From contig OZ231126.1 of assembly GCA_965153355.1 (NCBI GenBank), positions 35,340,001-35,404,000 on the forward strand: DNA of 64,000 bases. Reading direction: 5' to 3'. Shown in pieces: positions 41,101 to 47,100 of the stretch. The position numbers were made by a program, and so were the translations under genes. Every line of letters starts with the position of its first letter. Position 1 is the stretch's first letter. The notes under the pieces were generated by a model. That model saw only the letters and a list, made by a program, of their open reading frames with translations, was not told the DNA's origin and made no database searches. Source of the stretch: Flaccisagitta enflata. Taxonomy: Eukaryota.

Positions 41101-44100
41101 TCTCTCCAAGATCCATAGTGGGTCCGATCCTCAACAGTGGCGCTGGGTTGACTCGTCAAACAACCCGGCGGACCACTGCAGCCGAGGCATTCAGGCCCAT
41201 GAAGCCGAAAAATGGCATCAATTCCATCACGGTCCTGCATTTCTGCGTCTTCCTGAAGATCAATGGCCAAAGACGAACATCGCGACGTGCCCTATTTCTG
41301 CACAAGTCGCCGCTCTATATGTGGCTGAAAGTGAAAAGAAACAAGTGGCTGACGCAATACTTCTTGCAGCAGCTTCTCGGGGAAAGTGGATGCATAAGTT
41401 GCGGATCATCGGCATGCTTCTCATCGCAGTCAAAAGGTGGAGAGCGTATCCAAGGGCGAAGACACGAGCAGCAAAGGATCTCCTTCCTAAACCGGAAGTG
41501 ACGCAAGACGTTTTGGAGGAGGCGCGCAAACAGCTCGTCAAGTCAATGCAGCGGCATCATTATTCCGACGTCTTCGAACAATTGGAGTTGGGAAAAGTCT
41601 TTAAACCAGAAAGCCGTCATGACTTCAGCATAAAAAATAAGGAGATGCGGAAATTGAATCCTTTCATCGACGACGATGGTATCCTTCGCGTCGGCAGCCG
41701 ATTGGAAAACGCCGACATCGCACATGACGCTAAATTTCCCTTCATCCTGCCGCCAAAAGACGAGAATGTGAAATCATTAATTCGCCATTATCATCATAAT
41801 GATTTTCACGCGGTGCAAAGCATACATTGTGCCAATTACGCCAATTTGTGTGGATTACAAAAAGGTCTTCAGGCTGTCAAGAGCGTCGTCAACACGCGCT
41901 TTCAGATGCCAGAAGAACTTCAAAAAGAACGCAAATCAGCAAATGGCCAATCTTCCATCAAATCGCGTCAATCCTGCGCCTGTCTTTGCAGAGACTGGAT
42001 TGGACGTCATGGGGCATTTCCTCGTCAAAATGAACGGGCGTGCTGATCACAAGGTGTGGATCGCAGTGTTCACCTGTTTCGTGTCACGCGCCGTCCATGT
42101 GGAATTGCTCTTCAACATGTCAGCCGATGCGATGGTAAATGCAATCATCCGCTTTGGCAAGGCGCCCAGAATCCGCCGGTCACTTCAACGCGGAACCAAT
42201 CTAGTTGGCGCCACACATCCTCTCAAGAAGGAAATGGAAGCTTGGAACCGCAACCTCCGAATTGCAGCGGCGTGGCCTTCGGTGGGATTTCATCACGCCG
42301 AGAACACCTCACTATGTAGGGGTGTGGGAGAGAGTCGTCGCTCTCTTCAAGCGCCATCTTGCTTCCATTTCGACTGGCGCCATCCTCCACGTCGACGCCT
42401 TCAACACTGCTGTCGTCGAAGTTGAAGGAATTTTCAATCGCCGCCCTCTGACAGCGCTCAGCGATGATCCAAATGACTCTGAGGCCCTCACACACACACC
42501 GAATCATATCCTCAATCCATCAACATCCGGTCACGCCCCTCTGGATCTGGTGCAACAAGGCGTCAACTCTGACGCCGACTCCGCGAAGATTCAATGGAGG
42601 CGTGCGCAATCGCGTGTGGATGCGTTTTGGAAATCGTGGAGGGTCGAATATTTGTCGCTTCTTCACGCGCGAAGCAAATGGTCGAGATCCGAGAGAGACT
42701 TTGCGATTGATGACATGGTCATCGTCATGGACGAAACGCTGCCTCGTCACAATTGGAGTTTAGGACGCGTCATGGGTGTCGAAGGATCATCAGCCCATGT
42801 CCGGAGGGCTCATGTTCGACGCCAGGATGGAAAGATCGTGACGAAAGACCGCACGAAGCTCGTGCGGCTGGAATTGGACTCATAAAAAACGCTAAGTTTT
42901 GAGAGAGAGAGAAAAAGGCGCATGGGCCTGTCCATTAGTAACTATAGATATGAGTGATTGAGACTCTGATTTGTTATATTTACAAAGAGTTGTTATTATT
43001 CATATTTGGTTCTGATTATCCATGCTTTCATCTTTCCTCTTGTCAATTATGTTGTCCATTTCCACTTACACATTAAAACACTGATTCATTCGCTCTGTCT
43101 ATATGTACATATTATTGTGCCAAAATCCGTTCTTACCATTATCAGTTCTCAACGAACATTTCAAAGCTTCCGCTGACGACGTCATTCCATCTACGAAGTC
43201 AGTTCGCATCTTGAAGTCGCTCGTCGGAGTCAAGATGTCCCGTCAGCAGCGTCTCGAGGCAGAGGCCGACGTGTCGACGTCGTACGGATCCTTGGATCTC
43301 CATCGACTCTTCAACGACGGCTCCACTCGAGAAGGATCTGCATCCACGACGTCGTTCGGGGCGGAGGAGGAGGCTGTCGCGCTGGCAGCCTTCAATGGCG
43401 ACCTTCGTTCCGTCGTCGACGCAAAAATGGCGAAGAAAAAGCGTCAACAAGATGATGCGTTGGAAAATCGTCAACAGCCATCCAACGCCGTTGATCCCGC
43501 GTCGCTTCCTCCATTGGTGGTCATCAGAGATGGAGGTTCGAGGTGATCTCGATCAATCGGCCGACGGACTTATCCACCACTTCGCTGGCGGCGTCATCAT
43601 CATCGGATTTGCCTCATCGCCGCCCATTCTGCTTTGATTACCGCCCAGCGCCCCGTGATCGCGTCTGCAGCTGCATGTCAACGCAGCGGGGGCGAAGAGA
43701 GAGAGAGACTGGTCAATGATGGAGCAAGAGTGGAGGAGGAGGGGATGGAAACAGAGGAGGAGGTGCCAGTGAATGGGGAGGCGGTGGAGAAAGACATTGA
43801 CCCGGAAGTGGATACTGCGACGCCGGAAGAGAAGCACCAACGGATGCAGGCACGTTGGTGGTATCGTACCATCAGTCCGGACGTCGGAGTCTCTCCTCTT
43901 CAAAGAGTTTGAAAAACTCGTGTGCTGCAACAAACAAACTCTATGCGCTCTTCAACCAAACAGAGCTTGGCTCGGAGACTCTGGAGCGCAAAATCCAAAG
44001 TAATAAAAGGAGGAGGGAGCATGATAAGAGGTTCGTCGATGGTCCAGGCGACGAAGAGGAAGAATGCTATGAAGCCTCCTGCTGCAGCTGCAACTCCACC

Positions 44101-47100
44101 CGCAGCAACTTCCGTCGACGCTTCCGCAACTCCACCAGCGGTATTTGTGCTCGACGCAGCCGCAGCTACATCAGCGGCAATTCACACCACAGCAGCAGGA
44201 AGTCGTCAATCGCGCCCTGGATTGGTTCATCCCCCAAATCAGCAGCAACAGGGTCCTCGTGACGTCACTCCCTCACATCCATCGAAGAGATCACGACGGG
44301 GAAAGACTCCACAAAAGCGCAATGTGCCGAGTCAACAAAAAGGGCCAGATTCCAAAAGCAAAGGCCCTCTTCAAGCGCCTCCAAGCGCGCCCACTGCAGC
44401 AGCAACGCCCAAAGGCCAAGGAGAAGCTTCAAGCGGTTCGTCGACGGCAACGTTAGCAGCCTTAAGCTGAATCAGGCGCCCAGCAGCAGCAAAAGGGGAA
44501 GAACCAAGAGAGCTGGAAGAAAGCACAGCAGCAGCCAGGGAGGTTCTACTTGCGGTGCTTCGGCGTCCGCTGTTCAACCTGAAGTCTCTGGTCAGCAGAC
44601 GAGAGCGTCTTCCTTTCACTCGCAGCCGTCAAAAGCAGCGGTAGGAAGCGAACTAGTTGGCGGTGCTTCAGCATCTGTTAAAGCTGGTGTAGCGCCTCGT
44701 CAGCAAACAGAGTCTGCCCAAGGTTTGCAGCAAGTGCAAAATCCGCCTCCCCCGTCGGATCCAGCCTTTGATCCTGCGCATGGACACCACATCGCCGAGT
44801 CATTGCTACGGGAGGCCTCTTCACTTACCTCAAATGCTCCATTGGGTGTGGTGAAGAATTTAGCATCAAGGCTTCCAAAAGACTTCTTCGCGCCGCTCAA
44901 CCAAGGCCAACGAGTTGAAGCGGCTCGTCAAGTCTTAGACGAGACTGGCGCAACATCCAAAGGAGAGAGACGATGCTCGTCAAGCAGCAATGGCTGCGGA
45001 CAATGAGGTGGTCAAAGGCAACAAGCGAGTCGTGGAACTGGAGAAGCAGCTCGAAAAGGAGAAGCAGGCCTGTGCGATGAAGGCTAAGAAGAAAGAGGAA
45101 GCTGTGGAACGCGCGAAGGCGGCTATGGCCGTGAACTTCACAACAGCGTCCGCCGTGCGTCCTAAATTTCGACTGGCGCCGAATTGCGATGCAGCATCTC
45201 CACCTTCAGCATCTTCTTCAGCAGAAAAAGTCGGTCAGCAGATCCTGTCGCAAAAAGACGCTCCCAAGCCTGGTAATAAGAAACATCGAACCAGGCCTTG
45301 GAAAAATCAGACCGCCAGTTAAACACTGATTGGTGCCACGCCCAGTTGCTGTTCAATTTAACTACCAATTTGCAACATGGCGTGGAGAGCGCCACCATTC
45401 GCTGAGGATCGTATTCCACCATCACATCTCATCCCATCGATGGACAGGCCGGCCAAGTCGGGGCACCCGGGCGTGGGAATGACGTCCGCCCCGGCCTGCC
45501 GAAAAACGCCCGTAAGTATCATGGTTTGGGAAGGGTTGAGGTTGAGTTTTTTGTGGTAAATTTGAATCTGTACGATAAGAACTTTATAATCAATCTGCCC
45601 CTATTCTTTCTCTTTCTTTTTCTTCCCTTCGGGGAGGATACATTCTCAGACGGCTGCACCACCTGCGCCTTTCGATGCGGTCGCCGTTGACGACATCATT
45701 CATCGCCTTTCGCCCACGGATTGACGAGGTGTTGGAGCCCCGGAATGACCCGCTCGTCTCTGTAATGGAGAAGGCGCAGGTGATGTGGTCGTTCCATGAT
45801 GCTTACTAATTTCTTTTTGCCTTACAGATTCGTTTTTAGATATAGTTAGTAACTTATTTATTTTGTCTTGTTTTGTTTGGTTCCTTGGAACATGTACATT
45901 TTTGTTGTGTTTGTTTTAGACATGGTCTTTTTAGTCATTATTACGAATACTTTCGTATGACATGTTTTTAGTAGTATGCCCCCACTTATTATTTTCCACT
46001 CTCAAGTCAAATCCCAGGCTTGGAGTGCTCCAAGGCCCGTTCCCCTTTTCCCCCTCCCTTCCCTTTAACTTTTGCAGAACGGGCGCCTCAACCTCCTCGT
46101 CGCCGCCTCGTCTCCATCCGCGTCATCGTTGATCGTTGAAAATTTGCTGGTGGTGGATCCTTTCCGGACGGGAGTCATCATTCGTGCAGTCGTCGATCTG
46201 TTGATAGTTAGGTGGGGATATAAGAGGCGGTGGACGGGGAGGGGCGGGGCGTATCTTTGTAAATTTTTTCAAGGAAGGTAGTATCGGTTTTTTAGTAGGG
46301 TTTCCTGACCGGAAACTAGATGTCGGATTTTGAAATTCGTGAAATCTAAAAATGGGGCAGAATGTTAGAAATGTATGTCCGTCCGTCTATTAAGTATGTG
46401 TGTGCTTTTGTTTTTTTGCGTGCTTTTGATTTTTTTTTCTTCCTTATTATTCAATGCCGGTGTCTTTTGTTTCTCGCCATTTCTTATAATGAAGGCTAGA
46501 TGGGTAACCATATGGTTGCGCCTTGTATTTTATGCCATTTGTTTTTATTACGTAAACAAACATACGTAACTCGTCTTCGTGTCATCCAATTTTGGATCGA
46601 TTGTTTTTATTTTTTATTCACGGCATTGCTTCCTAAAGTGATTGATTGATTTTTCGTGATTGATTGAATGTGCCCTTGGAATTTACTAATTTCAATAATC
46701 TCTCATCTTTTTATTGCAGATAAACTTATGAACGGACAATTTACGTTAATTTGACTTCGAGACTGTGGGTTGAAACCAACAAAGTGGGCCTAAAAGTAAG
46801 TTTTATAGACGCGTTTTGCTTTTAGTAACTTTGTTTTTATCTTGTCTTCCGGTCTGTTATTTTTGTCTTTGTGCATTTTTGCATTTTTATCGCCGGATTG
46901 TAGTATGGTTTTTATCGTTTGCCCGATCAGCTTACTATGGGGATGATATGGATGAATTTAATGGGATGGGCCGGGGCAGGGGCAGGTATTATCAGGTGGC
47001 ATGGGCTCTGAAGAAGATGAACATGTTGTCATGTGCTGTTTCTGTCCTTTATTGTGTCCTGTCTCGATTTCATGTTATCTTTTGCGTTTGCTGATCACCA

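Follow-up and report, generated by a model that had tools for sequence, protein, structure and literature searches.

We found that a long terminal repeat (LTR) retrotransposon of the BEL/Pao type in the genome of Flaccisagitta enflata carries, downstream of pol, a third gene that we call ORF3 (open reading frame 3). The element lies in the 64,000-nucleotide stretch of contig OZ231126.1 (GenBank assembly GCA_965153355.1, forward-strand positions 35,340,001 to 35,404,000) that was analysed as a whole and is referred to as the window; positions are numbered from its first letter. We are highly confident that ORF3 is a true third gene, vertically inherited in one BEL/Pao lineage, that does not encode an env protein, evolves fast under purifying selection and has constrained non-coding flanks. 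The gene and two conserved blocks within it are located as follows.

43235 to 45322, + strand: third gene (ORF3), 708-710 amino acids in open copies, broken in the window copy by small deletions
About 43790 to 44070 (about residues 186-290), + strand: conserved block A, with DPxV, QARW, F-K-x-F-x-K-L-x-x-C-C and SSAxQ, then an Arg/Lys-rich helix
About 44750 to 45170 (about residues 516-660), + strand: conserved block B, a helical head plus an 85-residue helix, with the strongest constraint in family A

An earlier note on this DNA had proposed that an extra module of about 3.5 kb that separates pol from the 3' LTR encodes a single non-env accessory protein of about 700-850 amino acids, opening at an ATG at 43235, covering about 2.5 kb and split here by indels. 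The distance from the pol stop (42885) to the 3' LTR is indeed 3477 bp, a segment that occurs once in the window and contains an accessory gene starting at the ATG in question; the coding part is shorter than was thought (2.09 kb, ending at 45322), and the last kilobase or so before the 3' LTR is non-coding, though constrained between families. The acidic, Ala/Pro/Ser/Lys-rich, coiled-coil-like and basic segments that the note had quoted are all present, spread across five successive frame pieces. The genome searched was the 794-Mb, nine-contig animal assembly that contains the window. In a DNA search, 40 of 775 candidates were scored, all 92-100% identical over the whole query, and 19 of these 40 copies have a single open ORF3 frame of 708-710 codons, which bears out both the predicted protein size and its disruption here. 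When the C-terminal 199 residues of ORF3 served as a protein query, at least 150 matches (86-100% identity) were obtained, and 61 of the 150 scored sit in a frame of at least 700 amino acids. Compared with its nearest relative, the window copy has 21 deletions of 1-5 nt and no insertions, and the window LTR pair (98.7% identity) shows 7 gap openings against 3 mismatches; we therefore infer that some of the disruption probably stems from errors of assembly.

Selection was counted only at codon columns where two alleles were present that differed by a single change, using variants common to at least 2 of the 40 copies. In ORF3 of family A, to which the window copy belongs, shared variants comprised 52 synonymous and 43 non-synonymous changes, giving an omega (ratio of non-synonymous to synonymous rates) of 0.34 (p 1.4e-7); at the end of pol in the same 40 copies, the numbers were 42 and 5 (omega 0.05). 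Omega was 1.34 and 2.98 in the remaining two sense frames over ORF3, and 0.38 in the antisense frame that shares third positions and, as expected, mirrors the ORF3 signal. Constraint was strongest at residues 511-660 (21 synonymous to 1 non-synonymous), and omega was not significantly below 1 at residues 111-200, 291-510 and 661-710. Frame-breaking indels common to at least 4 copies numbered 0 in ORF3 and 19 in the kilobase after it. Purifying selection was also measured in family B, a second family described below, with an omega of 0.20 (50 synonymous to 25 non-synonymous, 10 copies). Of the overlapping frames that had seemed coding-like at first, then, that of ORF3 is selected; the long +1 frame found in many copies was rejected as a gene, because its omega exceeds 1 and it is no longer than in synonymous shuffles (P 0.08, 0.14), and it is a by-product.

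A phmmer search of 1.84 billion representatives returned 18 matches to ORF3, of which 10 were looked up, all from ENA. Profile searches for relatives yielded further matches of the same kind only (ENA or 'merc' sources), and a scan of JGI metagenomes gave 598 pattern matches, none of them confirmed. Family B, which was reached via a distant match, resides in the same genome with 46 matches of 63-90% identity, and its ORF3 stands downstream of pol in 14 of 15 fetched stretches. At the amino-acid level, families A and B are 79% identical in pol and 37-52% identical in ORF3, depending on the block; their third codon positions are 41-50% identical in both genes. The genome also has fragments of two more ORF3 families (L053 and L056), and a fifth type is present only in the protein collection. 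Integrase was found upstream in 14 of 18 further ORF3-bearing stretches, with a short match in one and none in three; three ORF3 loci that lack pol within the fetched stretch keep the 3' region of the element. By contrast with family B, none of 20 further BEL/Pao elements, which were chosen among 150 DUF5641 matches and have integrases 28-41% identical, had an ORF3 homologue in the roughly 5 kb checked downstream. Because family B has ORF3 in the same slot and the 20 other elements do not, the gene is considered to have been inherited within one lineage, the restriction that the earlier note had suspected. Downstream of another BEL/Pao element (L131, oriented 2791-4242), we noticed a 483-residue frame that by eye resembles the end of a long interspersed element reverse transcriptase with zinc fingers and is unrelated to ORF3.

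The ORF3 protein has an isoelectric point of 9.4-10.5 and 2-8 Cys residues in five family representatives. A transmembrane span was absent from all five (the highest mean over 19 residues was 0.76-1.32 and fell within Ala-rich or disordered stretches), and a signal peptide from the three full-length representatives, in which hydropathy over the first 33 residues peaked at 0.12-0.68 by a simple window method. There is likewise no Cys-bridged ectodomain, since one CC pair alone is well conserved and strands are absent from the model. By the tests run, ORF3 is therefore not an env protein, in agreement with the note; its frame is continuous in open copies and selected, and in the searches made it matched neither a known env nor a nested transposon. 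An AlphaFold model built on a 24-row alignment consists of helices only and places 488 of 710 residues at a predicted local distance difference test score (pLDDT) below 50. The predicted helix at 254-285, which contains the Arg/Lys-rich stretch, is confident (pLDDT about 90), and so is a small helical head that runs into the 85-residue helix (531-654, pLDDT about 90). A short hydrophobic motif in the N-terminal part is conserved across families, together with block A, VHPP, a motif of the TPxPKRR type and a basic C-terminus that ends close to a Trp; we take the TPxPKRR-type motif and the basic C-terminus to be like nuclear localisation signals (NLS-like). The N-terminal region also has an acidic stretch.

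Look-ups of family and fold were blank. Pfam assigned no family to the ORF3 pieces or to an open copy (DUF4472, E 0.033, was below cut-off); the ESM Atlas gave nothing for whole ORF3 or the C-terminal block (best 0.77); PDB sequences searched with the 24-row profile gave no match. Foldseek returned generic helices only from the PDB and, among viral structures, a best hit with E 9e-4 and a TM-score of 0.06, meaningless since the model is disordered, and VIA-align found only generic coiled coils (Z at most 6.7). As regards fusogens of the F, gB or G kind, Pfam and PDB sequences thus offered no match, and the fold lists contained generic helices alone (Z under 7). Such blanks do not establish a new fold, and block A was not folded separately. 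We regard ORF3 as a protein family without a description so far, in a slot whose kind is known. A literature search turned up no account of a BEL/Pao gene of this sort; Repbase, which may hold related elements, and most subscription papers were outside that search. Origin of ORF3 by gag duplication was rejected, as it has no likeness to gag.

The DNA on both sides of ORF3 is constrained as well, in the following segments.

42886 to 43234, + strand: constrained spacer, with a purine tract and a branch-like CTGAC (43173) 25-30 nt before TCAG (43199); 71% identical between families A and B
43207 to 43214 and 43230 to 43237, + strand: inverted repeat in the spacer, which takes in the ATG
45323 to 45511, + strand: GC-rich non-coding segment with conserved hairpins, directly behind the ORF3 stop
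45512 to 46077, + strand: candidate introns of the 3' untranslated region (UTR), at 45512-45649, at 45780-45827 and a third ending at 46077 (donor uncertain, perhaps 45849), with motifs conserved in families A-D

When one copy of family A was compared with one of family B, identity was 71% in the spacer, 63-73% in the segments behind the stop and 51% over the whole of ORF3; the spacer and post-stop values exceed both that of ORF3 and that of third codon positions (41-50%). The L053 family aligns by DNA over 45330-46378 at 67%, though its ORF3 DNA is unalignable. Judged by its motifs, the spacer is a candidate internal promoter or splice acceptor. Two TCAGTT motifs had been singled out there, at 43142 and 43199; both are at these positions, but with 21 occurrences of the hexamer on the window's + strand, two by themselves are not above chance, and only the one at 43199 is kept in the sister family. 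Right behind the pol stop lies a purine tract (42901-42918) that is kept in family B and is possibly a central polypurine tract.

In the 190 nt after the ORF3 stop, hairpins with four pairs changed on both sides were seen among 9 sequences. Rfam had no match for this segment, and a SECIS-like reading of the hairpins was dropped because the ATGA of family A is, by eye, not kept in B. Further downstream, the spacing of donor, branch and acceptor motifs is constant in families A-D, and a scan of four aligned sequences found 4 conserved donors in sense and 1 in antisense, with 3 and 0 acceptors, respectively. The exon between the first two candidate introns (129-134 nt) keeps no frame; hence, the introns would belong to the 3' UTR. 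On the same ground, and for its many shared frame-breaking indels, the 3' kilobase was not accepted as coding for a fourth, spliced ORF. As far as sequence can tell, this intron-like, constrained 3' kilobase favours an RNA-handling role for ORF3.

The host element is a 13.2-kb LTR retrotransposon inserted into a 71-bp satellite with a 5-bp target duplication; the tandem satellite is seen around it at 33963-34040 and 47278-49135. Its remaining parts are listed here.

34041 to 34958, + strand: 5' LTR, with TG at the start and TA at the end
34820 to 34830, + strand: candidate self-primer, an 11-nt sequence that starts at the A of an initiator-like TCAG inside the LTR and is complementary, but for one G.U, to 34959-34969
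34959 to 34969, + strand: primer-binding position, without the TGG start expected for a transfer RNA (tRNA) 3' end
35022 to 38837, + strand: gag, long and Gln-rich, with TGA at its end
38838 to 42885, + strand: pol, with reverse transcriptase, Pao peptidase/RNase H region, integrase and DUF5641; frameshifted in the window copy
46348 to 46362, + strand: polypurine tract
46363 to 47277, + strand: 3' LTR, with further conserved donor motifs at 46373 and 46796 and an acceptor motif at 46719

Pfam recognised in pol Peptidase_A17 (PF05380, E 1e-28) and DUF5641 (PF18701, E 9e-20), with integrase last, and a weak RVT_1 match to the window pol was below cut-off. The presence of the Pao peptidase and DUF5641 therefore makes the element BEL/Pao. 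The profile of the Belpaoviridae by the International Committee on Taxonomy of Viruses (ICTV) describes 1-3 genes, sizes of 4.2-10 kb, which the window element exceeds, tRNA priming and an env-like third gene whose function is not known (PMC8742986). LTR pairs in 7 other family A elements are 97.3-99.8% identical, and the family is therefore young; an eighth element was left out because its 5' LTR is missing from the fetched stretch. In both families A and B, the LTR termini (34958 and 47277 at the ends) start with TG and finish with TA rather than CA. An exon-like block of 73-79 nt bounded by conserved donor and acceptor motifs (46373-46719, 46796) is found inside the LTR. The gag product is unusually long (about 1270 residues), has extended Gln-rich tracts and matches nothing in Pfam; family B ORF3 has likewise acquired a Gln tract. 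Among individual copies, L058 consists of two 3' halves in head-to-head orientation, pol is interrupted by insertions of about 2.5 kb in L057, L099 and L113, and in L097 about 440 bp are inserted where the second candidate donor lies.

Gag and pol share one frame and are separated by a single TGA followed by CT(G/T) (38835-38840) in every junction examined, 6 of 6 from family A and 4 of 4 from family B. From its sequence, this junction appears to be of the stop-readthrough type, whereas the ICTV profile has only one continuous or two overlapping genes (PMC8742986). The same profile gives BEL/Pao elements an 18-nt primer-binding site complementary to tRNA-Arg or tRNA-Gly (PMC8742986). The site in the window is without a TGG start and pairs with the element's own LTR (host tRNAs were not searched); all of the 5' ends examined in family A (7 of 7) show the pairing, family B retains both halves, with one extra base, and family C the LTR half. 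Such pairing fits self-priming of the Tf1 type, in which the primer is 11 nt long, and could alternatively be a relic inner inverted repeat. In the accessible portions of the sources, self-priming is reported for Tf1/sushi, Tcn1 and some copia groups, not for BEL/Pao (PMC3601003, PMC6317226).

As to function, we tentatively suggest that ORF3 may be a nuclear factor, similar in role to Rev or CERV, that releases unspliced element RNA from the nucleus; we regard this as possible rather than probable. Beyond a selected, non-env, basic and mostly disordered protein, every step of the mechanism is one that we infer. ORF3 would be expressed from a subgenomic RNA, by an internal start or a splice acceptor near 43199, would enter the nucleus via its basic motifs and could oligomerise via the long C-terminal helix. 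Its Arg-rich helix (HIV-1 Rev also has an Arg-rich motif) might bind the element's own RNA, perhaps at the hairpins past the ORF3 stop, and intron-keeping full-length RNA would so escape splicing or nuclear retention, as with HIV Rev and the CERV protein of Caenorhabditis elegans Cer1. The full-length RNA must keep the 3' segments because integrated copies contain them; given the conserved splice signals in its 3' end, the element would therefore have to export unspliced RNA from the nucleus.

Several observations weigh against this proposal. Four of 16 listed RNA runs were aligned to a natural copy, and none of 12.2 million records of the polyA raw-read run (X16) matched. Contigs from three marine metatranscriptomes (X2, X4 and X5) cover the copy evenly (29-30 of 30 bins) and are uninformative on splicing, start or level; they pass unspliced through the candidate introns, and the single joint among them fits no predicted site. 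They probably hold genomic DNA or full-length RNA, because their depth is flat and flanking sequence appears in their loose ends. The stability of the hairpin segment is ordinary (single-sequence z -1.9, -0.2 and +0.1), and the covariation was read from nine related sequences and had no control. In the motif scan, the donor pattern was set after the sense motifs had been viewed and the filter missed two acceptors seen by eye, and gapped alignment of AT-rich DNA can inflate identity. Finally, neither in sequence nor in fold was ORF3 seen to resemble Rev or CERV, it has no identified export signal, and its model has helices only, whereas that of CERV, in the accessible part of its description, has a G-domain and a Cys finger (PMC10309623).

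It is less likely, and on balance doubtful, that ORF3 serves as an anti-silencing or counter-defence factor with a VANC-like role, which would bind the host piRNA (Piwi-interacting RNA) or chromatin machinery by short motifs and protect its own family. ORF3 has diverged far faster than pol (37-52% against 79% amino-acid identity) and has short conserved motifs within disordered sequence, and the family is young and abundant (LTR pairs of 97.3-99.8% in 7 elements; at least 150 matches), all of which would suit such a factor, whose precedent is confined to plants in what is accessible of PMC6719617. However, no non-synonymous excess was detected within families, other BEL/Pao families are abundant without ORF3, and the conserved 3' splice motifs would be left unexplained. 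By analogy with Tas, Tat or Tax, ORF3 could instead be a transactivator of the LTR or an internal promoter, which we consider somewhat more unlikely still. The acidic N-terminal stretch, the basic helix, the long dimerisation-type helix and the NLS-like motifs are compatible with this role, as is the conserved spacer with its initiator-like TCAG, but fold searches found no DNA-binding fold, and the basic and long helices are not contiguous, unlike those of a basic leucine zipper. An improbable reading is that of a cytoplasmic scaffold that would serve in particle assembly, in transport or in passage from cell to cell, doing an env-like job without being a fusogen: the env position, the long helix and the disorder would be suitable, whereas a hydrophobic segment and a signal peptide are absent, NLS-like motifs are conserved, and there is no gag likeness. 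That the region is a nested transposon, a host gene that was captured or a decayed passenger, and does nothing for the element, has been largely refuted and is very improbable, for although the window copy and 20 others of the 40 are broken and three loci carry ORF3 without pol in the fetched stretch, two families show purifying selection and the same gene position with third codon positions near saturation, the window has no second copy, and the pol-less loci retain the 3' region of the element. The probability left over from these readings belongs to an explanation that we did not foresee.

If the proposal of an RNA-releasing factor is extended to the whole lineage, this might represent a 'complex' BEL/Pao retroelement, with its own Rev/CERV-like protein of a new family acting on structured RNA behind the stop, splicing and export control of an intron-bearing 3' end, Pol made by UGA readthrough, and tRNA-free, Tf1-like self-priming. 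We think it unlikely that all of these parts hold together.

Third genes of several kinds are known from LTR retrotransposons. Tas and Cer7 carry env. Other env-like third ORFs of BEL/Pao are of the F type in roo and of the chuvirus/gB type in mosquitoes, according to the accessible part of PMC13524379. Belpaoviridae env-like ORFs (PMC8742986, and PMC13524379 as far as accessible) have position and sense in common with ORF3, which differs from them in having no signal peptide, membrane span, Cys-rich ectodomain or detected fusogen fold. Extra ORFs, including non-env types, exist in plant LTR retrotransposons (PMC7264820), and non-env third ORFs in those of bdelloids (PMC5408684). In the available sections of these two papers, the extra ORFs are, like ORF3, conserved family-wide and located after pol; unlike ORF3, they belong to gypsy/copia-type or rotifer lineages and are transmembrane proteins, GDSL or DEDDy enzymes or antisense ORFs, and none of these domains was found in ORF3.

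The closest parallel in arrangement is CERV of the Ty3/gypsy element Cer1, which in the accessible text of PMC10309623 is needed for export of unspliced RNA and is encoded in the same slot as ORF3. CERV has 517 residues and five spliced exons partly common with gag (same portion of PMC10309623), whereas ORF3 is one exon of 710 residues and mostly disordered. CERV was not among the phmmer and profile matches of ORF3, nor was a G-domain seen in the low-confidence model, no direct comparison having been made. With HIV-1 Rev, as presented in that text (PMC10309623), a possible logic alone is common: a basic helix, oligomerisation and structured RNA near the 3' end. ORF3 has no homology to Rev and no identified export signal, and is six times longer. 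The CERV paper, in its accessible part, leaves open whether other 3' ORFs serve RNA export (PMC10309623). The present lineage, which offers at least two families that look active, numerous young copies and candidate RNA elements that are defined, makes this question testable. Regulation by accessory genes, as shown for retroviruses and the gypsy element Cer1, would be extended to BEL/Pao by a third gene that is conserved, is not env and has constrained RNA signals of its own.

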